A stretch of DNA of 63,597 nt, the filler included. It is 5 parts of 5 records of this genome, joined end to end, with 100 filler letters (N's around TTAATTAATTAA, not from the genome) between each part and the next. Parts side by side here need not be neighbours in the genome. Positions count along the whole stretch, not along the records: positions 41,505 to 49,563 come from SRR2962707_1165; 4 more parts are not named here. One strand, given 5' to 3'. The notes beneath the pieces were generated by a model that worked only from the letters and a program-made list of their open reading frames with translations, ran no database searches and had not been told where the DNA came from. How positions within the stretch are numbered: position 1 is the stretch's first letter; each line of letters starts with the position of its first letter. A program made the position numbers and the translations under genes. This document shows positions 547 through 56,195 of this stretch, one piece after another.

Positions 547-3117
547 ATGAGTCTCCTTGACAAGAAGATTGAGCGCGTGCTGGCGATGAAGACGGACTCG
601 CCTGAAATGCACAATGCAATGGCTGCGCTGTCTACGTTTTACGGATCGAAAGGAAACACGCTGGAGGCCCGGCGGTCCCTGCGCGTGGACCTGGAAGGGC
701 GGTCGTTGTCGCTGGCCCAGGATTTTGTGGCTCAGTTTTCAGAGTTTCAAAACAGTTTGGAGGCGGTCGAAGAAACGGTCAAGGACATGAAATCAAAATG
801 TGCAGCCCTTTACGATGAAATTGATTCTACTGAAAAGGCGACGGCCACTTTCCTGCAGCGCACGAAAGATCTGAACTCCGTGCGGGACACGCAGAAGAAA
901 AGCATGGAGAGCCTGCGCTCTTTCATTATGAAGTTCAAGTTGTCGGATGCCGAAATTCAGACTCTGTTAGATGCTCCGCTTTCGCGTACTTCATTGAAGA
1001 AATTTCTGGACACTCTGTCGCAGCTTGAAGATATGAAACACCACTGCTCGAAACTATTGGCGATGTCGCCCAACAATACGTTCATAGTGCCAGCAAGCGA
1101 GGGAACTGCCCAAGGCGAGCACAATTTCGATCACACCCCGATGGAAATATTCAACGCAGTGTCGCAGTTCTACGAGCAGGGTTACGCTCGTCTGTTTCAA
1201 TGGTTATCTTCCGAGTGTGCGCAATGCTTCGACAACCCGCGCCCATCCGTTGATCGAGCGCTGTTGGAGGCGTTTCACAAATTTAGCTCGCAGCCAACGT
1301 ACCTGCATCACATTGAAGATGTCGTGGTCGCAGCCCGTAGCCACGCCGTCGCGGAAGCTTTTTCTTCGGCCCTAAACGAAGGTGGACCCAACGGGGTCCC
1401 GCCACGGATGGAAGACCAATCGGCAACACCTGTTCGATTTGTAAATGATTTGCTCGCTTGGTGCCACCAAGCGATTGCTGGCGAGAAGGAGCTCTACTCG
1501 TCCATGTTTGATCAGAGCCATGCAACAGAGGCGAAAACTGTCAGCCCTGGAGTGAACATACCAAATAGTCCGGATTCGGACCCCCCGAGGAGCCCACGTT
1601 TTGCGGCCATTTTTGAAGGCTTGGCAACTGTCGTTGGCCGCCGTTTGGATCGTGTTCTGAAAGAGTTTTCCGTTCACGATGTCGTGTCCGCGTTTCGTTT
1701 ATGGAAGCTATTTGGTTTTTATGCGGAAATGACAAGGGACTTATTACGATTAAGTCGAAGAACGCGTATGCCCAAGAAAATGGCAAGCGATGGTGCAGAG
1801 GCTTCCAGCGAGCAGCCAGGTGCGAGCGCACAGAACGTTTCTCCCATGGATCCTTTGAGTGATGCGCTTTTTGAAGCGGAGCGGCACGCGAGAATTACTT
1901 TTATGGGTCTGGCGCGTCAGCGCGGAGACGCCATGCTCGACAACATTGCGACGGCACCGGCAAGCCTCAGTGTCTCCTCTGTTGTGCAGTCTAGTCTGGG
2001 AGATCTTAAGCAGATTCTTGATCAGGAGGCTGGTTCGCTGACAAGCAGCAGCAGTTACAACAATAGCGAATCCAGTGAAGCACGTGCCGGCAACAGCAGC
2101 GGCACTGTTGGTAGCAGCCGAGATTTTGACGTGGTTTTAGATCTTTTTCTTCACCCAATGCTTCGCACGTCGCTCCGAAGCGCCAAGGTATATTTAGTCG
2201 TGCATGTTTGAGTCTCGTTTTGTTTCTTTCAACTGCGACTGACCATGCAGGCATGTTGTTGCGCATCTGTAGAGCCTCGACACGACCCATACAGCCCTAT
2301 TCATGGTGAATAACGCTCACGCAATGAGGCTTGCTCTCCTGCCATATCCTTTTGCGCAAAAATGGGTGGTATGAGTGCCTTTAGCATAGATGTGCATGTC
2401 ATGTTTGAGCTCTGTTGTTAGCAAAATCGCCCCTCCACCGTGCGGTGACAGTCACGTGTCAATGATGGTGACATTGGGACAGGAACGGGTCACCCATGAG
2501 AGGGATTCGTGGCAACAATTATTGGTTGTTGAGTTGGCCGGCTCCGTCATTGCTCAGTGCAATTTGACGGATTTCTTGAAGCAGTGCCGTTCAATTACCC
2601 ATGAACCGCAACAGTCAGGTTCAGGTACGTTCTCCCCTTCCTCCGTTCCCCCATCCGTCTCTTTCATTGTCGATTGTCGGGGAGCTTGTGGGAGCTGACG
2701 TGATGTGTTCCGCTTCCTTGCGTTCTAGAAGAACCTTCGAGCTCAGCCCAGCAGAACTTGCCGTTGCTCGCAAGTCACACGGACGCAACAACACTGCAGC
2801 GGCAAATGAAGCAGTTCTACAACGCCTTGTTCTCACTGACAGTTCCAATCCTCCAGCATGTGGTGGACCTCTCGCTGCGAGGAGAAACTCAACAGGTAAG
2901 CCTTGCGGTTGTGAAACTGTGCTAAGGCTGTCGTCGGGATCAGGTTTGCTTCGAAGGCTGCGTCTGTTGTGGATTGTTGCAGGCTGTTTACGCGACGCTT
3001 GTTGAAGCACACTCGACTATTTATTCAGCCGTATCCAACACAGAAATTTCAGGGTATGCTAAACCTTCCGACATTTTGCTTCATACGCCATCACAAATTG
3101 AGGTGCTGCTGAAGTAG
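547..3117 (+). CDS. COG6: Conserved oligomeric Golgi complex subunit 6 (5 exons)
   Basis: ATG 547 MSLLDKKIERVL..NTLEARRSLRVDLE; PVRFVNDLLAWCHQAIAGEKE; GT-AG introns near 2188-2272, 2369-2482, 2625-2728, 2896-2982; C-terminus GYAKPSDILLHTPSQIEVLLK* is typical of COG6. Confidence 0.9.
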
Positions 3118-3274
3118 TTGCCCCAAGCTTTCGTTTTTATAACTATCTATCTTATCGTACACACTACTTTTATGCAACATACAAACGTACATGACATACA
3201 ACACCTTACATACATTCAGGCTGAGCTTGCATGACGAGGCATCCATCCACTGAACACCTCGACGGCAACACCTT

Positions 3275-3907
3275 TCACTCCACGGTCTGAATATCGACGG
3301 ACATCTGAGTCAGCGATCCGAAGAAAATCTTTTGCCCGTCCACCAAGGGAATGGGCGTCATTGCGACCAGTTCTGTGCCATCTACAGTCGTTCCATTGGT
3401 GCTCCCACGATCTTCGAGGAAGAGACCTTTTCCTCGGATAAGGACAATTTCTGCATGAGTTGTGGACACGGAGTCGTCTTTCGATAGGCTGACACCACTC
3501 TTGACGTACTTGGCTGCCTTGGAACGGCCAATGAAAATGCTCACGGACTTAGACTTGTCGCGCTTGGCTCGACCACGACCCTTCCCAGGGGCCGACAATT
3601 TCAGTGTCCGAACCCACGAAGTTCCAGCATAAGGGCCCTCAATAGCTTGGAGAGTCACTTGGTACGTCGTTTCCTGCTCACCCATCCCGGCTGCGGCGAG
3701 CATTGCATTTTTCAAACGGTTGAACTCTGCTTGGATCATTTGGATCTTTTCGTTCGTGTGCGAACGAACTTTGTTCTCAAGCTGTTCAAACTCGCGCTGC
3801 AGGTGCTCCTCGACGGTCATATCATCGGAGGGTGCCTTGCTGGTCTTGCGCACTTTTCGCACAGTTGTCTCAACATCATTGCTCTTCTCAACCAATGCGC
3901 TCGACAT
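3275..3907 (-). CDS. N-terminal helix + C-terminal FHA domain protein (Survivin/BORI-type CPC subunit candidate)
   Basis: FHA motifs IFIGRS, DDSVSTTHAEI, LEDRGSTNGT; N-terminal helix DDMTVEEHLQREFEQLENKVRSHTNEKIQMIQAEF; ATG at 3907. Confidence 0.8.
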   Translation of the reverse strand: MSSALVEKSNDVETTVRKVRKTSKAPSDDMTVEEHLQREFEQLENKVRSHTNEKIQMIQAEFNRLKNAMLAAAGMGEQETTYQVTLQAIEGPYAGTSWVRTLKLSAPGKGRGRAKRDKSKSVSIFIGRSKAAKYVKSGVSLSKDDSVSTTHAEIVLIRGKGLFLEDRGSTNGTTVDGTELVAMTPIPLVDGQKIFFGSLTQMSVDIQTVE

Positions 3908-4174
3908 GGTTGGCGGTGGGCAGGTCACTTCTTGAAACAAAGAAAAACCACAACAACAACAAATACCAACAATGGCCAGCGTTTTTCCCACGACAAATCT
4001 TTGCCCCAAAACTGACGGCAGCAAAATTTCGAGGTATCGGCCACTCTACCGCTTCTTAAAGCGATGCGCACTTTGACACACGTCTAACTTTGCGGAGCCC
4101 GCGCAGCCAAAAAGCTGTGAAGTGGGCGACATGAGCAGCGACTTCCACGCGCGAATGTGTGCGTGTGCGTTTTT

Positions 4175-4247
4175 GAGTGAGTGAGTGAGTGAGGGCGAAA
4201 GTGAGAGAGTGAGGGAAGGGAAGTGAGTAAGTGAGTGAACGTGAGCG
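4175..4247 (-). promoter_or_regulatory. TCACTC/TCAC repeat cluster upstream of FHA gene, putative core promoter/initiator
   Basis: Plus strand gagtgagtgagtgagtgag...gtgagagagtgag...gtgagtaagtgagtgaacgtgag; motif recurs upstream of other genes. Confidence 0.4.
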
Positions 4248-4817
4248 GTTTGTGAGAAAATCCTCAACCGTCACTCTTTGGCGCTGCTCAATGTAAAATT
4301 CGTTAAAACACTGATTCTTACACTAGTAAATGGTAATAAATCCACAATTTAACAAAAGCTGAAATTTACTAAAAAATAGTGGATGAAAATACCCTGCTGG
4401 TGATCTGAAGTGGGCAGTTTCAAATTCGGTCATATTGTACTGTACTTTTCAAAAAACGCAAGCTCGTGCTTCCTTGTTGCTGTGGTCGCCCCTCGGCAGC
4501 CGTGAATGACAACAAGAGTGGCGCGTGATGGTTGTTGCATTGCCTTCATTGATTTTGGGGACCTTTTGCATGTCATTGGCGCCCGCTCGGTGCCGCCAAA
4601 GCGGGCAACCAACCCATTTTGTCTGTGTAGCATCCGTGGCCCGGGCAGATCGTGATGCATAAACAAGATGGAAGAGCCCGCAGTTGTCGTGCTCCAGAAG
4701 CTCGCTGCACGCACCACGATGAATGCATTACGGCGTGCATCGTTGCCAAGGAAGTTATTCATGCGTGCGGTGAACGAATTTGTTGACCAAGGCATTGCCG
4801 CCAGCGCTGGTAGCAGC

Positions 4818-6441
4818 TTACTCTTCCGAAGAAATGTTGCAGGCGTCTTTTTCGACGCGAGAATTGCGTTCACTCTTCAATTTTGCCTTCAGGAGGGCGA
4901 GGAAGAGCCTCTGCTGTCTTCTTTTGGCAAGCTGTTTCCTAGTGCGGGAACAACAAGAATAGTGAAAGGCGCATGCAGATATTACTCAGGTATTCATAAA
5001 AAATGTACCACCGCAAAGGAAACTTACCGGCGTTGTTCTCGAGTGCGCTCAAGCAACACCTTCAACCGAAAGCAGAAGGATGACAGTCACCACAGAAAGT
5101 TGAAAATAAACAAATTCAAAGAAACTCACTGCAACGAAGTTTACTCACATGCAAAGCACGAAGTCGAACACCATTGCATCGCATCACATCACAAGGAGGC
5201 AGTGCAGGGCCTTCTACGTTGGTTTCTAATTGCCTTGAAGTCGCTACGTTCGACTCGTCGGAATATTGTGATGGAGCGCTTGGCAAATAAGCGGCAGTGT
5301 TTAAGAGCCGCTCGTCATGCCCGCGCACCAGTAGGGGGAATGAGATGCGAGTTTTATGTCGCGGAAACGCCACCCGATGTGGGAGGGCACTAATTGAACC
5401 TTTCGTAAGCAAATGAATGTACTCGCCGACGAATACGATCACGTCTCGCTTTGGTACATACATCGTTTCAATCGGAATCCACCTGCATCGCACCCAGATT
5501 GTTAAGAACGGGTGGAACGGCCGAAACTCTTCATGTGTGCCCAATACGAACGATATTCACCTGTCTTTCACGAGCAGCTCGAGACCAGGTTCATCAGAAA
5601 CCACTCCACACGTGACAAATGTTGTATCTGTGTGCTCCCCGAAAGCCACAGTGGCGCTCGGCGCAGTTGCTCCGAGGGCAGGTGCAACCTCTGGTTGCGT
5701 ACGAGCTTCAGACTCCCTAACCTCCCCAGCATTTGGGGTGTACTTGCATATTCTCATCACGCTTGTTGTCAGAGCAGATCGCAACTGCGTCGTATGAGCC
5801 TCAGTGGCTGGCACAGGGGCTCTATTTGCAACTTTTTTCAGCTGAGGCTGTGCTGCAGTCGGTGGCTCAAGAAGATCTGTGAAAAAACCCGCAGGAAGGC
5901 CAAGATAGAACGCCAAAATACGAAGCACTGCTGCTCCAGTTGCTTCTAACAGGGAATGAAGCGCTCCAACTGCCTCATTAAAACCTGAAACGGGACCATG
6001 TTCAGAAGGTAGTCCTGTTCCCTCTGCTGGAGCTTCGTCACAGGCACCAATAGTAGGAACTATTATCTTCCGTCCGTCGGGTGGGCAACTGTAACTGCGT
6101 GCTTCAATAAATTCGCGACTTCCGGAATCTTTGTACCCAATGGGACAACCCCCTTCTAATGATTGCTTGTCGGTTGTGAGCGGAGCAAGATGCTGCTTCG
6201 TTTCAGCGTCAAGTTCAAAGAAATCTGAAGCAGCCTTCTGGGCTGCCCCAACGATACGCGCTGCTGTCTCAGGGTGTCGAATAACAAGATACCCCTCGCG
6301 GCGAAGCTGCTCACAAAGTTGGAGCACCAAGCCTTTGCATTGCCCTCCCTCCGAGCCATTTCCCAATGCCACAGAGCACTGGAGGACGGCTTCAGCTTCA
6401 AACACTGGCCCCTGGTCGCGCGGTTGCCCCTCCACAGACAT
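4818..6441 (-). CDS. 2-oxoglutarate/Fe(II)-dependent oxygenase, isopenicillin N synthase-like (about 4 exons)
   Basis: LRREGYLVI, FFELDAETK, HTDTTFVT (HxD), spliced exon VFVGEY..LPHRV..RISFP; final exons and stop at 4818 less certain. Confidence 0.8.
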
Positions 6442-8130
6442 GACCGCAGCAGCACAACCACCGCAAAACCAGACTAAACAATGGAAATAAAGAGACGCTT
6501 GCCTCGACGTTTTCGTTAGGCTTTTTTTTTTCACTTCCTCGCCATGTAGACCCTGCCTTCGTGCACAACAACCAACCCATCTTCTCGAGCCCCGCAGCAA
6601 CTTCGAAAGGAAACCTGCGGCTCATCATCGTCCCCACAATCCAATCCGGACGAAAGAACACAGCAAACACGATGGGAAAAGAAAAGCGACGACGCACACA
6701 GACAAGTCAACTAGACTGAAAACTGAAAACTTGTCGAAAACTTGAAAACTTGAAACCTTGAAACTTACTTGAAAAGCAAAGAAGAATTACCGGTGTGACC
6801 GCAAAACGAAAAAAGCGGCAGAGGTGAGGCTTGTTGTTTCTGTTACCCCTGCACCAGCCACTAGCTTGCTCACTCCACAGGAAAAACAATTTCTCAAAGG
6901 GGAGGAACGCCTGTACTTCTGGCTCAAATTCAAACTTCTCGCGACATTCTAAAAGATCAGTCCACTAGGGACCAAAGTGGGACTCTTCACAAACACAGGC
7001 GACCCCACAGAAAAGAACACTTTTCAATACGACTCTACTGGGCATGAAGGCGGAGCGGTGGGGTTTCGAAGCTCTCTTTTACGTGAATCCGGTCGCAATC
7101 ACAAGCCAGTAGCGAGTTATCCGTTTGATTCACCGCTGTCCGTAGTTCGCAGCAGCTGAGTGAGCAGTCGCTGGCAGCGAAAGCGCTGGCGAGCGGAAAG
7201 CAGCACGTTATGTGAAAACAGCTCATTAAGACACGCACACCTCCGCCCACTACGCCTGCGTGTGAGAGTGCCCCAGAAGTTGTGAAGTTAAATCACACTA
7301 TTTTCAATTTCACTTAAAACCTTTATCATTTTACGCTGTGATAGTATCACGACAGTATGAAATACGTTGTACTGAAAGCTTAATTCTTCACTTGCTCCTC
7401 CACTTCAACGTGTCATCTACGGTCGAAACTCCTTCAAGTGAATACGCGTAAGAAAGTCACTTTCCAACAGTTTTTTTACGAGGACGAACGGTAGCACGCT
7501 GTAGAACCTCAGCTTTTTTCCATAAACACTGAAAACTGAACGCACTCTCTCCTCAACAACACACTCTCCCTCGCTCACTCGCTCACTCAGCACTCGAGGC
7601 GCATCGTCTGTCCTCCTGGTCCACTTAGTCTGGTCAGAGACTTCGCTCGAAGTGCGTCGTTTGTGACCACCACCATCACGACGATCAGCGGGCAGCAGGT
7701 TGGGTTTTTCTGAAACCAGCGCTCACACCTGCCCGCCGAAAGCTGGCTGCTGAAGGTGCAGTCAGTCGTTGTAAAGGATCCTGGTGAGGGCGAGCGGCGA
7801 TGCGCTCACGTACTAGGTTGCAGCATGGCCTCGGAATCGAGGGTCATATTTTCCTTTTCGTTTTTTTTTTCGAGCAAGCACGTTAGTGCGAGTTCGTGGG
7901 GGGGTGCTGTTGCTCCACTTTTTTGTTGGCTCTTTCTTGTGCTTGTCTGGTTCCGTCGCTGCTTCTCTTATTCTTGCAGTGATCGAGCGCCTTTCTCTGC
8001 TTGTGTTCTTGCCTGGTTCTGCCAGAGCTGCGTTGGCCACGGCACGGCCTGTTTGGTCGTCATGTGAGTGGCGCTTCGCTTTGGCCGTCACGGAGGCACT
8101 GCCGTGGTCGAGTTCTCGAGCACTTGCAGC

Positions 8131-11100
8131 ATGGTGACCCGTCCAAACTCAGCCAGCGGCACAGTTCGGATTTGCATTGCTGTAAGTTGGGTGTGGTTGT
8201 CCGTGATCAGCGCAGCGTCCGTGTTCGAGTCGCTTGAACGCCCGTCCTTGCTTACGCACCTGAGTTTCGACGAGTACGAACCGTCAAGCCCATTCTCAGT
8301 TGCAGGTGGAGTTTTCGCTCCAGAGGTCAATGTTTCCAGTAACGTACTGCGGGATGAAAATGGACACTCGGGTGCTGCCCTCTTCTGCCGTGCCGACGCA
8401 TCGATGGATCTACCAGTTGGCGTTGGACCTTTAGCAATGCCCACAGTGACTTTCGGTGCATGGGTCAAGCCGACAGCAGCTGTACCCAAAGGCTCATACA
8501 ACCCTGTTTTGCTGGGCACTAGCAGCATCACTGGCGCGACTGGCCGATCCATATTTCTTGTTGACGTGGACAATACCCACCACTGGGCGGTCAGTGTTGG
8601 TCCAAGATCCTCTGATGTCGCCATTGTCGAAGAAGCTCCCCTACGGGTTGGAGAATGGCATCTTGTCGCCGCCCAATACGACTCAGCAGCAAGTGTCGTT
8701 GGGCTTTTCGTTGATGGAGAGTTGTTTACCTTGGCGACAACGGATGTTCTGGCTGAAACAAATAATCTTGCGATTTGCCACGGTGGCGTTGGAAGTCAAC
8801 ACTCGTCATTCTATGGCGACGTGGACGACTTTTTCATCTTTAGTGAGTGGCTCAGCCTTAGTTCCCTCGACTTTTTGTATGAAGGCACTGCAGTAGAACC
8901 CGCTGGTCCAGCTGCGGGAAGTGCGGGGTATGCGCTGCGTTTTGACACCAGCTATGTTACAGTTCCCCTCTCCAATAATCTCGCTCAAGGCAGGTTCCCG
9001 GGAACTACAATGCTTTGGCTCAAGCCAATGGACGTCACCACGGGATCTCTGCGATGCGTCTTGCAGTTCGAAGCACCGCAAACGCGCGTATTGTTGCGCC
9101 TTTTGGCCGAAAGCCCACATTCTGGGACAGAAACTCTGCAAGTTGACTCGGTTCGCTTCAGGGTTATTCTCTCGTCCGGCTTGAGTGGGGCGACAATTTT
9201 TGATTGGAAGCCGTCACATTTGGTGGCCGCAGGCTCATGGACGAACCTCGCTCTTGTGTTTGATGAATTCCACGACACATTTGCACTCTTTGTTAACGGG
9301 AGTCTCCAAGGATCGTTAAATCTTTCTGGTAGCGCTGCTTTCCAAGCAGTGAAACTGCCCACTCATGTCTTTGGGGATCTGACGATTGGGGCCCAGACCG
9401 ACGAATGGGGCGTTCGGCCGCGGGGAGCCTTTTTCGTGGGCGAAGTCGACGAAGTTGCTTTGTATTCTGCCGCGTTGACCGATGAGTATATCGGGCGCAC
9501 GTATCAGTCTTCACGCTCTCTTGCGGATGAGTTCTCAGGCGAATGTCTGGGGTATTGGCGCTTCAATGAGGGCTGCGGGATGAGCTCCGTGAACGGCATT
9601 GCGGGACAAAGCTCATCGCAGGCCCAGCTTGACCCAGGCATGTTTCTGGAGCCCAACTCCGAAGTTTGGGTAATTGCAGGCACACCCATCGATCTTGAAC
9701 AGAGCGTTGGAGCATCTTCAGAGTTGCTTTTCTTCCTCAATGGCTCCCAATGCATCGCTGACCCACAATCATTCCACTTTGAAATAGTCTCGGTGCCCAG
9801 TGTCGGCTCAGTTCACACTGTCGACGAGACGGCTGTCCTCCGTGCTGGGGCTACGCTGCTTCCAGGGGACACATTGGGTCAGTTTGAAGCCGCTATCTAT
9901 CTGCCCGACCCATCGCTCGAAAGCAGTTACACTACTCAATTTAGCTTTCGCACGATTTCCCTCGATGGAACCGGGTCGTCGATAGCCATTGTCACAATAT
10001 TGGTGCAGGCTGAGCAAGATGTACTACCACAGTTTTCAATGGACGACACTGTAATGACAATCGAAGGCTATGCTGTCAGTGACACGGATGTTGCAGAAGG
10101 GACCAACACCATTGATATGTCGGTCGGTATTGAGTCAGACTCTCTCGAAACAACTCTGAAGCTGGGATCGTCTCGAGGTCTAAATTTTGCAGATGGCAGC
10201 AAAGCGGAATCCGTCTCCGGTGCTCGAACGCAGCTCCAGTTCTACGGCCCGCCAGAGTCTGTTTCATCCGCTCTCGACCGCATAGAATTGTCAATGGCTG
10301 CAGCGCAAGGACAGACAATAATTTCTGTGACAGCGAATGACATGGGAGTCCCGAACGACGCCGTTTCCGATTCTGTACAGCTCAGCGTCTCCTTGCGCTC
10401 CGGTGGTGGACCTGTTCTGTCCTCACTTGAGCCGAGTGCTGGCTCTCCAGCAGGCGGCTACTACGTCAGCGTTTTTGGCGAAAATTTCGGACAGATGGAT
10501 CTCACATGCGTGTTCGGAGATAGCGTATCAACACCTGCAGTCTTGGTCTCAAATTCCAAACTCCAGTGTTTAGTGCCTAGCATTTCAATGTTCCCCAACA
10601 CCAGTTCACTTTTAGAGTTGTCCTTGGTGGTTCGCAGCGAAAGCGCCTTCGAAAGCAATTCCCTCAGGGTGCAATTTTACGACGAGTTTTCGGTTGACGG
10701 CGTTTTCCCATCACTGGGCCCTGTGTCGGGAGGAACAGAAGTTGTGGTGTCTGGCTCGGGATTCTATCCCTCTATGCCAATTCAGTGCCGCTTCAAAGGC
10801 TCAGCAATTACCGTTTCTGCGCTTTTTGTCAACTTTCACCGCGTAGTTTGCGTGAGCCCAGTTGTGTTGGTTGCTGCAGACTCCACCTTATTTCTGACAG
10901 GCAATGGCGTTCATTTTTCGGATGCCAACACGTCGGCTCCATTCCTATTCCACGAAGATTTTTCTGTGGGCTGGATCACCCCGGGCTTTGTGCCAGCCTT
11001 CCAACCATCGAATGTGACAGTAATTGGCCACAATTTCATCGATTCTGGTGCGTTGAGCTGTGTGTTTGGGAACCAGGTTGTTACTGCACGATACGTCTCG

Positions 11101-13626
11101 AAATCTATCGCCACGTGTGCGGTGCCTGTCGATAGCATCGCCGAAGGCACAATCGAAGTTTCCATGTCAAGCAACAGTGGTGTAGATCGCTCCCCACAAA
11201 CTCTAACCCTGACGGTTTTTTCGGATCCTACGCTCTATAGTCTTGCACCCAAGGCAGGTTTTACAACCGGCGCGACACCGCTGGTATTTTCAGGGAAAGA
11301 TTTGCCGAATGTGGGTGAGCTTCGCTGTCGTTTCTTCATTGGCACAGAACAGGTATTCGCATCGGCCACCTATGTCAACGAAGACACTATTTCATGCCTC
11401 ACACCCAGCGTCAGCAAGCCGCAACAGGCAACTGTGGACTTGGTCGTCACTGCCACGGGGCAAAGTTACTGCTTACGTTCTTTTTCGTTTGCGTATATTC
11501 AGCGTTTTGGCGTTGACTCAGTGTCCCCCTCCACCGGACCCAGTAGCGGGGGTACGCATATTGTGGTGAAAGGCAACGACTTCGTGTCGACAGGGTTATT
11601 TTGTGGGTTCACCAGCGATGCTAACAGCTCAATGTCCATTGTGACGGAGGCCACCTTTGTCACATCGAACATTGTGAAATGTATCTCGCCTGCCGTACCC
11701 ACTGAAAGTGCGGCAACGTACACACTTCGCGTTGGCCTCAATGGTGTTGACTGGTCGCCTTCGAGCCAAACTTTTCGTTATGACCTCCCCATATCAGAAT
11801 TCTCAATGTCACCCAATCGAGGTCCTGCTAGTCAATACACGACGGCCATCATCTCGGCAGACTTTACCGAACAGCCAGAATTCCTGGTGGCAACCGTTGG
11901 TTCTGCAAAAGTGCCGTGTGTTCGCAGGTCCAGTTCCGATGCTGAATGTGTGATACCGCCGAGCAACTGTGCTGGAGACGTGGATGTGTCGATTTCCACA
12001 AACGGTCAGCAGTTTTCGCTTGTGTCTGCCGTGTTCTCCTACTACGATGGCCTCTCAGTTGCAAGCGTGTCCCCCGGACAGACATGGTTGGGCATTGAAG
12101 AGCGATTGGTGCTTGAATCTGACAACTTGTGGTCGCCAAGTGCAATCTATGTCTGCCGCATGTCCTCAACCATGGACGTTTTTGAGATTTCTGCACAGTT
12201 TGAGTCAGCATCAAAGCTTGCCTTCAATTTTACGGGGCGATATGCTGGACGGTACAACATCTTGTTATCAGCGAACAGTGGGGTGAATTTCGAGGTGACT
12301 GGGTTTTCGATCGAGATTCTTGAGCCTCCAAGCACAATATCGATTGCTCCTTCAATAGGCTCAACCACCGGCGGTACTTCATTGCACATTTCCGGCACAA
12401 ACTTCGACTTTCGTATTTTCTCTCACTGTGTGTTTGTCGGGAATTTTCTGAGCGACATCGTGGCAGTTGATCAAGCGTCTGCCAACAGTGTGGCTTGTTC
12501 ATCGCCCACTTCCCCGCAAGGTGGAAATGTACAAGTGTACCTTTCCACGAATGGGGTTGACCTAACGCCAAGTTCTTCTGCTCCCACTTTCCTTTTCGTT
12601 TCGCTTCCACCAATCCTGAAGATTGCTCCTGCATCTGGTTCCATCAGCGGCGGAACGTCCGTCGCGGTTGAGATCAGCTCGACGCAATTGCTCTCGGACT
12701 CACCTGTTTGCTTGTTCGGTTCTGAAGAAGTTCAAGGTTGGACCCAAAATGAAACACATGTGCTGTGCACATCGCCCTCCCTGGTCGACTCAGTGAGTTC
12801 AGATGGCTCTGTGTCCGTTCCGGTCTCAATTCGCATCAACGAGCAAGACAGCTTTCCAAGCTCAGAAATGTTCCAAGTGTTTCCCCCGCCACGCATTTTC
12901 GCGGTTACCCCGAAGGTCATTGCTTCAAACGACACCAACACGATTGTTGTGTCAGGGGCCAACTTCGTGGTTGGGGCCAATGCCCACTGTGCATTTGATC
13001 GCTTTGTGATGGAGGCGACTGTGCTGTCGTCGTCGGAGCTGACTTGCCGAGTCCCCCCACAGCTGTATTTACAACACGAGCAGACATCTTTCCGCGCGAT
13101 TGAAGTTGACGTGACTTTCAACGTTGTGGATTTCACAGCAACACCACTGACGTTGTTCTTTTCATCACCGGTTGGTGTGACTGCTGTTCTCCCATCCAGT
13201 GGCCCCTTGGATGGGGGTACTCCTATCACTCTAGTTGGGCACGCGTTCCAAGCTCTTCAGGTGTATTCGTGCAGATTTTCTGTACTTGGCGAATCGGTCG
13301 AAGATTCCGTTGAAATTGATGTTGGGGCCACGTTTGTGACGTCAGGAGCATTGCAATGCAAAACGCCCACTGTGCCGTCGAGCTCAACAATTGCAGACAT
13401 TCACATTTTACAAAACGATGTCGCCATTTCAGATCAATCGGCGAAGTTCCTGTTCTCTCCGCGCCCAGTCGTAGCAGAGATACAACCAGCCAGTGGAGCA
13501 ACATTTGGAGGAACAAAAGTGCATGTCGCTGGCAACGGCTTCTTGCAGTCTGAATTCTTGCACTGCGTTTTCGATGGCCTTCGTGTCGCAATCACGGAGT
13601 TCATTAGCGACAGCGAAGTTGTATGC
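8131..13626 (+). CDS. Giant secreted/surface protein: 2 LamG/concanavalin-like domains, Ig-like linker, at least 12 IPT/TIG repeats; 3' truncated
   Basis: Hydrophobic N-terminus ICIAVSWVWLSVISAAS; LamG motifs GEWHLVAAQYD..LFVDG..FYGDVDD and WTNLALVFD..LFVNG..FVGEVDEV; repeated P.I.SV.PS.GP..GGT.V.V.G.NF units; ORF runs into linker. Confidence 0.85.
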
Positions 13627-13726
13627 NNNNNNNNNNNNNNNNNNNNNNNNNNNNNNNNNNNNNNNNNNNNTTAATTAATTAANNNNNNNNNNNNNNNNNN
13701 NNNNNNNNNNNNNNNNNNNNNNNNNN
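13627..13726. other. Artificial contig linker
   Basis: N44-TTAATTAATTAA-N44, stops in all six frames. Confidence 0.99.
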
Positions 13727-41404: not shown

Positions 41405-41504
41405 NNNNNNNNNNNNNNNNNNNNNNNNNNNNNNNNNNNNNNNNNNNNTTAATTAATTAANNNNNNNNNNNNNNNNNNNNNNNNNNNNNNNNNNNNNNNN
41501 NNNN
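41405..41504. other. Artificial contig linker
   Basis: N44-TTAATTAATTAA-N44. Confidence 0.99.
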
Positions 41505-41821: not shown

Positions 41822-44800
41822 ATGGCGGAAAAGACCCCACAACAAAACTGCGAGGAGTTCCGCAAGGTACTTCACAAGCTGGAACGTCTCACTCTCGGCA
41901 GCAACGCGCTGAACGTGTCCGCGAACGAGCGTAACCTCGCAGTTGGATACGACCCGTTCAACGGGAACGCCACTGTGACGGAGTACCGTGAAGTCCCTGC
42001 TTTGCTGGAAGGTTCCCCCACACAGTTGGACAACCTTCAAAAATGGACCGACTTTATGGTTCAGTCTGATCGCGTACTGCAGCGAGGCAAGGACCTTTGC
42101 GTATTTCTGTACACGTTCCGCGGGCTCTCAGCCACTTTACCCGTTGCCCCGAATGCGTCGATCGACCTTGATCGAGACGCCACGCAGGAAGAGAAGGACG
42201 CAGCGGCCGACGCGCGTCGAGCCGCAGCAAGAGATGCCAAGATTGTGAAGGAAAACAATTTTGCCATTCTTGAGCCATATATGTGCCGACTGCGCGATCT
42301 GCAGGATTTCAACACAGACCTAGGGGACGTGCTCCACATGTTCCTGGCTAATTACACATTATTCACTTCGGACAACAAACGGGAGGTCGTGCCATCGCAG
42401 ATCAAGGAGCGGGCCGTGCAACTCGTGGACGTTCTTGTGCAGCTGGACAATCTCAAAGATATGAAGGCCTCCATCCTCAACGATTTTTCGCTGTTCAAGC
42501 GGTGCCTCAAGGGCATTGAGGACGATACCGATCCTGTCAAAGTGGAGGAATACAATGGAATGGTCAAGAAACTCAGTCTTTTTCTTGCTGACCCTTCGAA
42601 CCCCAAGAGCATCATGTTTCATAAAACACGCCAGAAAGTACAGAGCGTACAAGACTACGACATCCCACTGGTTACGCTCTGCGAGTTCAGTCGCAAGCGG
42701 ATCAAGCATGATCTTTACCTCACCTCCGACGAAATGCACATGTACCTTCGCGTGATTCCGCACCTCTTCTTGCTAATCGACGAGCATCAAACAGAAAACC
42801 AAGAGCTGTCAGGCAGTACTGCTGTCAATATTTTCAAGCACAAGAAGCTCAACACCTCCGATTACAAAGTCATCTGCAAAGAGTATCCGGTTGTGCCCCT
42901 GTTCCGCGACATGAGCGTCAATTTGATCGAGATTCTCAAACGGTGCTACCACTTTCCGCCAGGAAGCGAGCACAAGTGGAAGTGTGAGCAAGACCCAAAT
43001 GGGCGCGACATTATGCCATCCGAATACAATCTGGAGAGACACTGGGCAAGAACTCGCGAACAGTACGATGAGTTTGTCGCCACCTGGCTCAACTTTATGA
43101 AGACTATCCACCTGAAAATTGAACAGGTGCGTGTATGTGCGCGTGCATGCATGTGTGCATGTATGTGTGCCAGCCACTTACAACCTATTCTGCGCCATGT
43201 CTCGCGTGGGTGCCCACCGCTTATTCATGGAACAGAATGCCACATTTGAAAAGATTGCACTGGACCCCTTGACGCAAGAAACTGGCTCCATAACCGTCGG
43301 GCAGCGCCTCTCTGAAGTCGTTCTTCGCGGCATGCGACTCTTAAGTGTGTGGTCGACGCGAATAAAAAACCACATCACCTGGAAATACACCCACCCCCAG
43401 GACAGCTCGAGAACACCGCCGGAGGAACGCGACCGCTACCAAGCGTACTGTGATGCGGTCAAGAATAACCTCAGCCGCGTCGAGTTAACAGTGTTGACCG
43501 ACACCATCGTTGTTACAAAGTCACTCGCATCGCTGATGCTACGCGAGGAAGGCACAGTCGTTGCGGTCTTGGCCGCCACAATGTACCGCGACATCCAGAG
43601 CTTCAACCAAATTGCGCTACGGCACCCACTGTTTTTCGCGCAATCTAAAAAAAGGCAACAGACACTGGGACTTCTCGAGGCGCTGCGCGACACCATGGCA
43701 GACTGGCCAACAGGAACAAAGCCCTCAAACCAGGTCAAGTACCTTGATCCCAAGAAGTCCGGAGTTGGAAATTTGCTCAAAAGGGTTGTAACCCCGACCG
43801 AAACTCAGTTGTACGTGTATCGCAGTTTAATGGACCACCTTGTTGATGAGAATTCCGAAGCCATGAACTCGGGCGGCGTGTTTACGGCGCGTGACATTTC
43901 GAAGGAAGCAGAACAGCTTGTCATCGCGCACCAGCAACGGGCATTTTTCTACCCTTACTTATTGGGATTCAGCCGCTGCATCGACAGCTTCAAAGACATG
44001 GGCGATCTTTTGTTCCGAGAGTACGTGGTGTATTGTTTCCCTTCGTCATAAAGTGATGCGCGTGCTCACACGCTGTTGGCCACCATTGATACACTATCTG
44101 GCACTCGTTTTGACTGGCGTTTTGTATTTGTGTTCCTTCCCCTTCCGAATGCAGGTATTACCTTGAAGTCACCCGATGCGTTCAGTTTCCTCTCCGTCTT
44201 TCACTTCCGTGGATCCTAGTGGATCACATTCTCTCGCGGCGAGCACATGTCACGACAGTGGACGACATGTTGATGGTGCTCGACATCTACAACGACGCTG
44301 CAAATCGAGTGTTGTATCGAATGAAAAAACAATTTATGTTCAACGAGATTGAGGCCGAAGTCCAAATCGTCTTTGCAGAGCTGGTTCTTCGGCTGGCTGA
44401 TGATGCTTATGCGTATCACAAAGACCGGGCGGCGTACGACGCCTTGCCAAAGGAGCAGAAAGTGCTCCTTGCAAAAAAAGGGAAAACTGCTGTACCCACG
44501 GTTGTGCGCCATTTTGAAGTGATGTTGGCGCAGCGCAACATCGAACTCCTTGGTCGAAGCGTCGACTTGAATGGGATCCTGTCAAAGAAAATCCAAACCT
44601 ATGTTGTCGAGGACTTGAAAGGCATTGTGGAGCGCTTTGAGGTTTCTCGACTCACAGAGGTTGTTGAAATCGACGTGCTGTTAAAAATCTTGCGCGCCAC
44701 GCATGCAAACCTTGTCGCTGCAGGCTTGCAGCTAGACAACTTCCAAGACATCTACAATCGCAGTGTTCAGCGATTAGGGTCGTTCTCGTTTTTGGACTCT

Positions 44801-46843
44801 GTCGTTCTGCGAGTTCAAGACGCAATGTTTTCGGACCTTACAGTGTGGTTCGCCTTCAATGAAACTTCACAACAATTTGTCGTTACGGACGATGATGCTG
44901 CTCAAGAGTTTCAATGGGACGAGAAAAAACCTCGGGCTAAGCAGCCGTTCTTCCTGTTTGGCTCTGGCCCGCTCAACCCCAGCGCGTCAGAAAATCGGCT
45001 CACAAAGCAATTTGCCAGAGCGCACGAGCGTTGGCTACGCCCGTTCAAGGATTTCTTTGGCGCGGAGCATTGCCGTGCAATCATCAACATTGTCGGGTTG
45101 GCCCAACTCCCGATTGTGATTCGGTCGTGCGAGCAGAGACTCCATGAGTGCATCGACGAAACACTGTACGATTTTGTGGATATGCTCGGCAACAAGCCCG
45201 ACGACAGCGGCGAGTCTGAAGGGGGAGTGAAGGGGTTCCCTATTTGGCAGTTGCCCAAGACGGACACCACGGTCATGATGTCCTCAGAGTTCAACTTCAT
45301 GCGGCTGGAAACCAATGCCTTAGCTGTGCTGAACCGGTGGAATGAGCTGAATTTGATCGTTGTAATGCAGACCTTCCGTGAAGTTGGCAACATCATCGCA
45401 TTGTTGCGTCTCTTGCAGAGCGAGCTCGACTCGGAAGAATTGCATATGTACATGCTGTCCGCTCCGTTTTTGCAGCGGCCTGCTGGCGCCCCCGAACCAA
45501 CTGCGATTGAAACATCTCTGAACGTCCATGCTGACGATACCACCATCCTCGAAAGCGCTTGCGATGACGTGCTGAAACAATTCAAAGTTTCGCCTGTGGG
45601 AACGATGGGCCCTCATATTGGTTATCTTGGAAGGCTGTGCGAGAACGCTGTCAATGCGTACGCCCCGTTGGATCAAAATGCCTTGATATTGCGGCCTATT
45701 CTTGACGAGCTTTCTGCGCTGTTGAGTACCAAAGATTACGACCATTGGCACGGCGATGTCGTTGGCAACCCGAACGCGAGAATGGCCATGGATGCTCGAC
45801 CCCAACGCCAGTTTCATCGCATTTGGGCAATGATGTCATTCTTATATTGCATGCAGCCTTTGCCCGAGATGGCTATGAAGGTGTCGTCTTTTAACAGCAA
45901 GTTTGGAGATGGGTTCTTGTGGGGTGGTCTGACTATCCTGCACCTGCTGGGACAGCGCCAGCGCTTCGATATCCTCAATCTGTCAAAGTTCTTGCTGGAT
46001 CTCAAAGAGTTCGAAGACGGCTGCCAAGACCCTGACCGTGTGCGTAAAGATGGATCTCAAGTGCAGGTTACGGTCGGCGGAAACGAAGCAACGCCGGTTG
46101 AGCATATTCAAGATCAGATTCGTGGGTTTTACGCGCGGTCATATGCGCTGCTGCAAACGTCCAATCACATATTGGACTCTCTGGAGGCGGACATCCCGCC
46201 ACCGGACATGTCTGCCGCCGTCCGTTTCCATCCTGACGGATCCATCATCGCGGCAGATGGTGTGAAAGTGGCCCCAACAACGGGTCGGCGATCTTCCGTG
46301 GCCGCACCATCACCATCCAGCACGAAACAAGCATCTTCACCGGAGCCAAACGTGTCTTCGGCTCCATCGCCCAAGCTGCCTCCTGCGCCAAAGCCTGTTG
46401 TACCAGTGGCCCCCAAGCCCATTGTGCCGGTGGCTCCAAAGCCCATGAGCGCGCCTGTGCCAAAGCCTCCACCCACGCATGCGCCGCCTGTTCCAAAACA
46501 GCCAGCACCGCCAAAGCCCAAATCTAACGCTCCACCAGTGCCGAAGACACACGCCCCGCCAGTTCCCAAACAGCCGGCTCCGCCGGCCCCGAAGACGCAC
46601 GCCCCGCCAGTGCCGAAGCAACCAGCACCGCCGAAACCAGCGGCTCCAAAACCGCCGGAGAAACCTGCTGTTTACAGAAAGGCTAAGCACAAGTACAAGG
46701 CGGTCGATGACGACGAGTTGTCTTTCAAGAAGGGAGACTCAATCAAGATCATTGGACCAGCAGAGGACGAGGGATGGCTCATTGGTGAAATTGATGGGAA
46801 ACAAGGCTTGCTCCCAGAAAACTATCTTCGGCCAGCCCCGTAA
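41822..46843 (+). CDS. CYFIP: CYFIP/Sra1/PIR121 homologue with C-terminal proline-rich region and SH3 domain (3 exons, about 1590 aa)
   Basis: LDNLKDMKASILNDFSLFKR; spliced [74 protein letters not shown]; introns 43127-43235 and 44021-44154 restore frame; SH3 DELSFKKGD..EGWLIG..GLLPENY. Confidence 0.92.
46368..46668 (+). repeat. Coding tandem repeats PKPVVPVAP and THAPPVPKQPAPP
   Basis: THAPPVPKQPAPP occurs three times and PVAPKP twice in the translation. Confidence 0.9.
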
Positions 46844-47027: not shown

Positions 47028-49281
47028 TCAGCCCTTGTTATTAAAGCCGAGTTGCTTCTTCCATGCCCTTTCCTCTTTCTCGAAACGCAGTTTGTCAGCT
47101 TCATACATCTCAACGAATGGCTGCGTTCAACATGGCAACATGCAACGAAACAATCAGCAACAGCCACAGCACACCACTTTTTTTGGATTGCCAACGACAG
47201 ACAACGTGGAAAAGTCTGCACTTACTGCGCGCTCCTCTGCCGTCAACTTTTGCCATTTCACTCCAAGTGCTCGAGCAACGTCTGTAAAGCCAAGGTCTGG
47301 GTGGGCGTCACGGATTGCTTGCCGGGTTTGTAACGTGAAGAAAAGGTATGCTGATGTTGGGCGTTTAGGTCGGGCCAGCTTTTTCACGGCTGGCTGCTGC
47401 CCACGCTTCAGCGCCGTCGCTGCATTTTTCGGGTCGGAGTCTCCAGTTTTCCCATCAGCGGTTTCCTTGTTGAGCGACTGGCCAAATGACTTCGTTTGCA
47501 ATACAATGAGACGCTGAACCTGCGCTTCGTAGGATGCGCGTTGGCGCGCGTGAAGTACCATGAGCTCACGTTTTTCAGCCTCCCCTACATTTTTCCACAT
47601 TTTTCCAAGTATTTTCGACATTCCTGCGAACGACACATCTACAGGCGCAAAGAGACGTTCTGTGAGTTGCAGCTTAGCAAGAACCATGCGTGCATTCGCC
47701 AACAACGGGAACGAACTCGGGTTCTTTCGCCGGACTTCATCGCGATGATTCGCTGAGAACAACAAAAACAGCGACGTTGGCATTTTGGGGAAGCTAAACC
47801 CATTGCCGGTTTCTGTTTTCTGCCCTTGCTTGGACTGTTTCAGCCTCTTGTCGCTCTTCAGAGACGCTTCTGCGCCCGCGCTAGACGCTTTCAATTTTGA
47901 TGCCTTGCGTTTGATCGGCTTCGAGGCAGGTGCCGTTGCCATTGCTGCGGGTTGTTTCGTGCCAGATTGCTTGCTGATCTTACTCCGAGCGGGCATGTGC
48001 GTGGCGTTCGGCTGGTCCTCAGAATGGCGCACGACACTTTTCTTTCTGCCTGACATATTCAACAGCATTTGACTGCTCTGCGCGTCCTCCTGTTGCGGAG
48101 GCGCTGAGCTACCGTGGCTTTGTTGTGCCTGAGCACTTTCAGCAGAGTGCTGGTGGTGCTGGTGGTGCTGGTGGTACTGAAGCTGCTGGGGCTGATGGTG
48201 GCGCTGATGCTGTTGGTGCTGCTGGTGCTGCAGAAGCGAAAGTAGATGCATCTGCCGCTGCTGCTGCTGCTGCTGTAAACGAAGTATGTGCCAATGCTGC
48301 TGCTGTTGCTGCTGTTGTTGCAAATGCTGGTAGTAAAGAAAATGGTGTGACATGCCGCGTTGCTGGTGCTCGTATAGTGTTGGCGACGCAAACGCTGGGT
48401 GCCCAACGTGCCCCGATTCAGGCATATGGCTTGTGTCGGCACCATTGCCTACATCGCCTACATGTGCAGCCACCCCAAACGAGTTGTCAGGATTGGGTTT
48501 GACGTCGCATGACGAAGAGGATGAGACTTTCGTCTCACGCTGTCGTTCATCGTGGTGTGGACCCAAGTGCCGTAATTTGGCAAGTTGGTCCGCAATCATA
48601 CGAGTTTGCTCTGGCTGCTGGCTGCCACCGGCATTGCGTTCAGTAGTATCGCCGGCAGTTTCAGCTGATTCTCCTGAGCGCTGAGCCGATTGGGATGTTT
48701 GCAAGCGCTTGCCCACGTCCACAAAAAGTGACGCCCCCGAAGTGTTCACTGCGTTTGCACGCGCAAGGCTTTGCATCTGCGCCTGTTTCAGTACCAGTCA
48801 TATTCAACCAATGAAAGCAATCGAGCCAAACGTTAGTTCCGTGAATGGGTGGAGAAAACAAGCTAAACACTGAGACAACACGGCTTGCCTGAAGAGCGTT
48901 GCGCTGCATTAGCTGCAACTGAAGCTGCTGCTGCTGCTGCATAAAATATGCGTAATGATGTGGCAAGTGGCCGTTACTGGACACGCTGCTTTGATAGGAC
49001 GAAACTGGTTGCGGGAAAAACGTAGAGCTTGGATGTCGAAAACTCTGTGGGTTTGTTGGCACACTGTCGTGACCGTGCGGTCCGCTCTGAGCCACACCCT
49101 CCGAAGGGTAGCCGTGAAGATTCGAAGGATTCGGATAGCCTTGTTGTTGCTGCCGTTGGGAGACGTTGAGCTGCGGTTGTGCTGCACTCGTGTCCGAGTG
49201 CAGTTCTTGGCGTCCTTCCTTCGTGGTACTTGTGCCAGCGACATTCGGATGTTCCCCATTGCCGCTGTACTCGGATGGCAT
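47028..49281 (-). CDS. Two-HMG-box protein with polyQ/H N-terminal region (start uncertain)
   Basis: PKMPTSLFLLFSANHR..SKILGKMWK and PKRPTSAYLFF..VARALGVKWQKL..PFVEMYEADKLRF; introns about 48783-48888, 47639-47716, 47121-47225. Confidence 0.85.
48147..48330 (-). repeat. CAG/CAC trinucleotide tracts encoding polyQ/QH
   Basis: Plus-strand tgc/tgg runs. Confidence 0.9.
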
Positions 49282-49563: not shown

Positions 49564-49663
49564 NNNNNNNNNNNNNNNNNNNNNNNNNNNNNNNNNNNNN
49601 NNNNNNNTTAATTAATTAANNNNNNNNNNNNNNNNNNNNNNNNNNNNNNNNNNNNNNNNNNNN
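49564..49663. other. Artificial contig linker flanked by (TCCA/TCCG)n and (CCTT)n microsatellites
   Basis: N44-TTAATTAATTAA-N44. Confidence 0.99.
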
Positions 49664-56095: not shown

Positions 56096-56195
56096 NNNNN
56101 NNNNNNNNNNNNNNNNNNNNNNNNNNNNNNNNNNNNNNNTTAATTAATTAANNNNNNNNNNNNNNNNNNNNNNNNNNNNNNNNNNNNNNNNNNNN
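56096..56195. other. Artificial contig linker followed by (GA)n
   Basis: N44-TTAATTAATTAA-N44. Confidence 0.99.

Follow-up and report, generated by a model that had tools for sequence, protein, structure and literature searches.

Can the Rac sensor of the SCAR/WAVE complex carry, within a single polypeptide, both a proline-rich tail and an SH3 domain? As the complex is currently described, its large, structured Rac sensor is CYFIP, the disordered Pro-rich regions lie on WAVE and Abi, and the SH3 domain is found on animal Abi. The question is raised by a gene at positions 41822-46843 (+) of a stretch of protist assembly DNA that was analysed at its full length of 63,597 nucleotides, here called the window. 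Judged by homology, the gene is a CYFIP/Sra1/PIR121, the Rac-binding subunit family of the SCAR/WAVE complex, from a marine heterotrophic protist. Its 1592-residue product runs from a CYRI-like Rac1-binding domain through a nearly complete FragX_IP domain and a Pro-rich tail to a C-terminal SH3 domain. On sequence comparison, this architecture is real, conserved and rare.

Three independent lines of evidence support the fusion. The protein P0157, which bears a eukprot label in the 'ORF type:complete' style and has precomputed Pfam assignments for SH3 and FragX_IP, is an exact substring of our spliced model, covering residues 536-1592 with intron 2 removed and ending at the same last residue. 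We take this label style to be the format used for open reading frames (ORFs) called on assembled transcripts; as a transcript-style ORF of this kind, P0157 shows the extension to be transcribed within the CYFIP reading frame. The second species is represented by L002, a 9413-nt seawater-metagenome contig with one intronless ORF of 1611 aa (767-5602) that begins identically (MAEKTP) and keeps the order of the domains, with its SH3 at residues 1555-1605. Another contig, L001, encodes the same protein as L002 up to the contig end, which falls inside the tail. The window protein and L002 share 71.7% identity over 1582 aligned residues, with regional values of 69-77% for the CYFIP body, 53% for the tail and 63-65% for the SH3. 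The proportion of differing synonymous sites (pS) between the two is 0.84, which is saturated (0.74 in the tail), while the proportion of differing non-synonymous sites (pN) stands at 0.17 in CYFIP, 0.26 in the SH3 and 0.36 in the tail. Because synonymous sites are saturated while pN stays low, the added module is under purifying selection. At the level of sequence, these data confirm that CYFIP, Pro-rich tail and SH3 in one reading frame are real, and kept by selection in a second species.

The window joins five separate contigs, with spacers of the form N44-TTAATTAATTAA-N44 at 13627-13726, 41405-41504, 49564-49663 and 56096-56195, and adjacency across these spacers is therefore meaningless. 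The CYFIP gene lies on the 8059-nt contig SRR2962707_1165 (41505-49563). The shortness of this contig, and the concatenation of the window from contigs that include a bacterial one, might suggest an artefact, either a misassembly or a CYFIP gene and a neighbouring small Pro-rich SH3 gene read through as one, but the continuous frame recurs in P0157 (another data source), in L002 (a different species) and, into the tail, in L001, and neither the window nor L002 has a stop codon on the way from the CYFIP core to the SH3, so that this explanation is already largely refuted and a misjoin or two-gene read-through is very unlikely.

The gene was modelled as three exons and two GT-AG introns, all on the + strand, with a spliced length of 4779 nt and zero internal stops. 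Exon 1 (41822-43126) contributes 435 codons and opens with an ATG that is conserved in L002. Intron 1 (43127-43235; 109 nt, GT..AG, phase 0) was placed solely from the L002 orthologue, which has no introns and to which the model aligns without gaps, and its junction lies outside transcript cover. An alternative intron 1 of 43 nt (43131-43173) also leaves the frame open, but introduces 21 extra residues that are missing from L002, and was rejected. FragX_IP begins in exon 2 (43236-44020), and P0157 starts inside the same exon, at model residue 536. Intron 2 (44021-44154; 134 nt, GTACGT..CAG, phase 2) is confirmed by P0157, whose protein sequence is continuous across it. Exon 3 (44155-46843) holds the C-terminal half of CYFIP, a tail of Ser/Pro linker and proline repeats, the SH3 and the TAA stop (46841-46843) in a single uninterrupted frame, and P0157 is identical to it up to the last residue. 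The original prediction had placed the entire fusion in one exon free of stops and introns; this holds for 44155-46843, from the CYFIP C-half to the SH3, and fails for 41822-46843, which contains two introns. Both introns are short, and the 72% identical L002 orthologue has none.

The CYRI-like Rac1-binding domain (about 42188-42781 (+), residues 123-320) matches the Pfam model CYRIA-B_Rac1-bd at 3.4e-9 and 36.8 bits, against a cut-off of 23.1. In an alignment to human CYFIP1 (3p8c_A), the Lys-Arg pair matching human K189-R190 is kept ('...SLFKRCL' vs human '...SAYKRAA'); R190 of human CYFIP1 is a residue that we take to act in Rac1 binding. The CYFIP core, FragX_IP, extends over 43275-46024 (+) in exons 2 and 3 and covers Pfam profile positions 36-856 of 886. 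The exon 2 match has an E-value of 1.9e-43 (profile 36-281) and the exon 3 match one of 4.7e-103 (profile 283-856, residues 1-623 of the exon-3 translation), both well clear of the model's 23.3-bit cut-off. A sequence search of the PDB matched human CYFIP1 (3p8c_A) at 4.5e-16 and 5e-56.

The core is followed by a C-terminal segment of 85 residues (46025-46279 (+); ...SLEADIPPPDMSAAVRFHPDGS), which is 62% identical to L002 and in which AlphaFold2 (AF2) predicts a helix at residues 2-27 of the modelled fragment. The segment ends in ...AVRFHPDGS, and many other CYFIPs show xFHPP at an equal distance. Since an xFHPP-type motif ends many homologues at the same place, we read 46025-46279 as the ordinary CYFIP C-terminus. 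The protein resembles human CYFIP1/Sra1/PIR121 (3P8C chain A) in its N-terminal CYRI-like domain, its near-complete FragX_IP and its K-R pair at 189-190. It differs from animal and amoebozoan CYFIPs in being only ~25-30% identical to them and in having ~190 extra C-terminal residues, made up of basic Pro-rich repeats and the SH3.

The added tail (46280-46669 (+), 130 aa) is 38% Pro, 15% Ala and 12% Lys, with 18 Lys+Arg residues against 2 Asp+Glu and an isoelectric point (pI) of ~11, and it contains no run of five or more prolines. AF2 predicts it to be disordered and devoid of secondary structure, with a predicted local distance difference test score (pLDDT) of 30-70 overall and a uniform 60-70 in the repeat region. 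That region, the distal half of the tail, is an array of xxAPPxPK octads (46475-46642 (+); model positions 1473-1513), in which six exact APPxPK units with a strict 8-residue spacing are accompanied by one degenerate seventh unit; Tandem Repeats Finder gives periods of 24 and 48 nt. The proline repeats noticed at the outset (THAPPVPK/QPAPPxPK) are therefore genuine. Conservation within the tail is highest in the array, which has 75% identity to L002 and invariant A-P-P-x-P-K columns, and the number of exact APPxPK units is six in the window and eight in L002.

The SH3 itself occupies 46670-46840 (+), with a Pfam core at about 46679-46834 (residues 842-893 of the exon-3 translation). Three Pfam models match above their curated cut-offs, namely SH3_9 (8.8e-13, 48.3 bits; cut-off 30), SH3_1 (1e-10, 41.4 bits; 22.9) and SH3_2 (2.1e-9, 37.4 bits; 21.8). 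When the SH3 was searched against the PDB, 290 sequences matched at E ≤ 1e-3, the best being the Grb2 N-SH3 at 3e-19, with drk, Crk, myosin IB (2e-10 to 5e-9) and CD2AP (1e-10) also scoring highly. The binding-face features seen by comparison with Grb2 are present, comprising an acidic RT loop (DDDE; DDELSF), the Trp, the Pro and the Asn-Tyr pair, and W44, P57, N59 and Y60 of the domain are invariant in L002. In the AF2 model the SH3 forms a beta domain of four strands with a pLDDT of 87-90. Profile matches and model together indicate that this is a canonical SH3 with a conserved predicted ligand-binding face and beta-barrel fold. The domain placement in the original prediction, including an SH3 at about 46673-46840, is borne out by the Pfam and PDB matches.

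To what extent is this architecture shared by other CYFIPs? The 895-aa exon-3 protein was used as query in an exhaustive HMMER scan of 1.84 billion cluster representatives, which gave 2882 matches at E ≤ 1e-3; the best 150 of these were analysed, and the counts of representatives given here and below refer to that set. CYFIP homology was found in 148 of them, the other two (P0057 and P0112) being multi-SH3 proteins. The CYFIP C-end is reached by 115 of the 148, and the remaining 33 were set aside as truncated. With the window SH3 as query, none of the 115 C-end-reaching representatives was found to carry an SH3, and no extra Pfam domain was found in any of the 35 representatives with at least 105 residues past the core (E limits 1e-4 and 1e-3). 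Among 34 near-length homologues with precomputed Pfam assignments, P0157 is the only one with an SH3. The premise that the architecture is not already common agrees with these counts.

A search for homologues longer than 1567 aa, using the CYFIP part as query, returned P0183 alone, from an index that lacks at least the L002-type 1611-aa protein; P0183, the CYFIP of the stramenopile Tribonema minus (1920 aa), has no SH3. The corresponding search with the last 700 aa as query was dominated by words from the Pro-rich and SH3 parts and was uninformative, yielding only multi-SH3 animal proteins and no CYFIP, and a search of the ESM Atlas gave no usable match. Close relatives are few and fragmentary, and those found (P0158, 69% identity; P0007, 61%; P0099, 75%; P0114, 76%) are all cut before the tail.

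Pro-rich tails, defined by at least 20% Pro past the ordinary C-terminus, are present in about one in seven of the CYFIP representatives (16/115), mostly as polyproline runs. Examples are P0013, P0010, P0019, P0045, P0047, P0101, P0063, P0025 and P0008, the last with the source name Balamuthia mandrillaris. The view that the Pro-rich segments of the complex come from Abi and WAVE only is therefore incomplete. These protist CYFIPs resemble the window protein in having a long, low-complexity Pro-rich C-terminal tail after the CYFIP body, but theirs are FH1-like, with PPPPP+ runs and no folded end domain, whereas that of the window protein is built of APPxPK octads and ends in an SH3. A different likeness is offered by P0164, a 1358-aa CYFIP of 27% identity from a Logan contig, in which a WW domain (3e-10) at residues 1328-1357 places a proline-recognition module at the extreme C-terminus; here the module is a WW instead of an SH3, and no Pro-rich repeat array lies ahead of it. 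As P0164 is only 27% identical, the WW domain was added independently. The CYFIP C-terminus thus seems to gain Pro-rich sequence recurrently, and to have acquired a proline-recognition domain twice. The tail of P0062 carries His-rich repeats (HHRHLWEE-type) that follow a short stretch of polyproline and may be either genuine or the result of frame read-through. The literature searched, with supplementary gene tables outside its scope, held no description of CYFIP-SH3 or CYFIP-WW proteins, and Pro-rich CYFIP tails were likewise not found described there.

The module had been likened in the original prediction to those of Abi and of the myosin I tail. Long-tailed myosin I has a tail composed of a TH2 Gly/Pro/Ala-rich region and an SH3. 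The window protein shares with it a basic Pro/Ala-rich stretch followed by an SH3, and myosin IB supplies some of the closest SH3 matches in the PDB, but no myosin head or TH1 match was found by Pfam in the window protein, and the resemblance is one of composition plus a generic SH3. The C-terminal half of metazoan Abi1/2 likewise consists of a disordered Pro-rich stretch and then a C-terminal SH3, on a subunit of the WAVE complex, and its function, as an adaptor that tunes the complex (PMC3984289), may be analogous. It is, however, a different subunit; no exon of the window gene has an Abi-family Pfam match (E ≤ 0.01), and no Abi chain occurs in the best 60 of the 290 PDB SH3 matches. With no Abi or myosin-I Pfam homology in the tail, 'Abi-like' and 'myosin-I-tail-like' can stand as analogies only.

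As for the organism, the source-label prefix of P0157 suggests a small marine heterotrophic stramenopile genus. In the available main text of a 2025 paper on that genus (PMC12614181), supplements being outside its scope, there is no mention of CYFIP, WAVE, SCAR, SH3 or pseudopod, and 'actin' occurs once, in the reference list. Kollmar et al. (2012, PMC3298513) report one WAVE or one WASH, as alternatives, in stramenopile genomes, so a WAVE complex in the window lineage is plausible, not certain. The analogy to Abi is a fitting one: according to Davidson & Insall (2013, PMC3984289), its SH3 is found in metazoans only and was acquired recently, and its polyproline tail tunes the complex without being essential. 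As the Abi SH3 is confined to metazoans, the complex would have gained an SH3 independently on a different subunit; for a stramenopile-type protist this would amount, by analogy, to a separate acquisition of the kind of module seen on Abi.

What might the extension do? By analogy with such modules, the appended tail and SH3 probably form a built-in adaptor on the CYFIP of a WAVE-type complex. The CYFIP body would still dock Rac, as expected from its family, and would sit with Nap1, SCAR/WAVE, Abi and HSPC300. The SH3 would capture PxxP-bearing partners, perhaps SCAR/WAVE or Abi through their Pro-rich regions, perhaps other regulators. The PxxP units with their flanking lysines could in turn serve as docking sites for SH3 domains, whether the protein's own (in cis or in trans) or those of others, and the polybasic tail may have an affinity for acidic membranes as well. 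Overall, the complex would gain in valency and would cluster at actin assembly sites.

Several points weigh against this adaptor function. Membership of the complex is assumed, and the ligand of the SH3 is one that we infer. As P0157 begins in exon 2, transcript-style support is limited to residues 536-1592, and shorter isoforms that end before the tail may be made as well. L002, which carries the SH3, is the only relative with a complete C-end. The tails of other protist CYFIPs are polyproline runs, and because they have no SH3, a CYFIP tail can function alone. Within the SH3, the first aromatic of the ALYDY motif is a His in the window (AKHKY vs AKYDF in Grb2) and a Trp in L002. The consensus forms of SH3 ligands are class I ([RK]xxPxxP) and class II (PxxPx[RK]). 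The tail contains no class I site and one class II site, versus 12 PxxP[RK] sites, and on this basis the APPxPK repeats are not textbook SH3 ligands.

Two other accounts of the extension were weighed. In the first, the main function is a self-association switch, in which the SH3 engages the APPxPK units of its own protein and gives either autoinhibition in cis or multivalent assemblies or condensates in trans. The repeats adjoin the SH3, both are conserved in two species, with the six and eight units at 8-residue spacing, and the repeat array (75%) is more conserved than the SH3 itself (63%). An acidic RT loop would also suit lysine-flanked PxxP, going by general knowledge of SH3 domains, but the motifs fit neither the class I nor the class II consensus. 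The AF2 fragment gives no sign of a docked segment, the pLDDT of the repeats being uniform and the output coming without contacts. We consider it possible as the main function, if rather unlikely.

In the second account, the tail is mainly a polybasic, Pro-rich extension towards the membrane or the actin machinery, and the SH3 is a minor lineage add-on with an unrelated partner, for example of endocytic or myosin-I type. The basic character of the tail (pI ~11, 18 Lys+Arg vs 2 Asp+Glu) would suit such a role, as would the 16 of 115 representatives that have Pro-rich tails and no SH3, but the lack of any run of five or more prolines makes FH1-like profilin binding less likely. The high rank of myosin IB and CD2AP among the PDB SH3s fits the proposed partner, but purifying selection on the SH3 (pN 0.26 vs pS 0.84) argues that it is no neutral add-on. 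We therefore regard this account as doubtful.

The built-in adaptor on CYFIP, which we prefer to both, could be carried further. Among these marine heterotrophic flagellates, the Rac sensor itself would now bear a 'proline tail + proline reader', and the seven or so APPxPK octads and the SH3 of neighbouring complexes might bind one another to give a Rac-activated multivalent membrane lattice. Such a lattice would take over what the tail of Abi and the clustering proteins with SH3 domains do in animals, and Abi might then be reduced or lost. We offer this as a speculation with a low chance of being correct. If it were true, the lattice, together with the CYFIP-WW fusion of P0164 and the polyproline tails, would make the CYFIP C-terminus a recurrent evolutionary site for tuning the valency of the WAVE complex.

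The interest of the locus is that one CYFIP bears both a PxxP-Lys repeat array and an SH3, held by selection in two species. Should the module serve to cluster or gate the complex, it would provide a compact natural system for studying the tuning of Arp2/3 activation by valency and by SH3-PxxP contacts, and a handle on actin regulation in little-studied marine heterotrophic stramenopiles. This interest is tempered by the facts that SH3 shuffling is common in eukaryotes, and that the protein was already present, unremarked, in a public proteome set. The comparisons point to a concrete case in which the WAVE complex gained an SH3 convergently, and show that CYFIP tails are more diverse than had been noticed.

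Downstream of the fusion gene, an HMG-box gene identified by Pfam lies tail-to-tail with it, at 47157-48797 (-) in the window and at 6297-7787 (-) in L002. The two HMG-box ORFs show no significant BLASTP likeness outside the box, so synteny between the window and L002 rests on domain content and position only. No Nap1, SCAR/WAVE, Abi or HSPC300 was found among 11 ORFs scanned, a subset of those on the other four contigs of the window. The other eukaryotic contigs encode ordinary proteins, namely a COG6, an MCM, a TPR protein and a giant TIG-repeat protein. The contig at 13727-41404 is a separate bacterial contig within the protist assembly, with a GC content of ~0.61 compared to ~0.51 elsewhere and dense long ORFs of bacterial families (MMPL, DUF1302, flavin monooxygenase-like). 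Finally, one open frame of 1868 aa at 8068-13671 (+) combines 11 IPT/TIG repeats with two Laminin_G_3 (ConA-like) domains, and would encode a large protein with a putative role at the surface or in adhesion.

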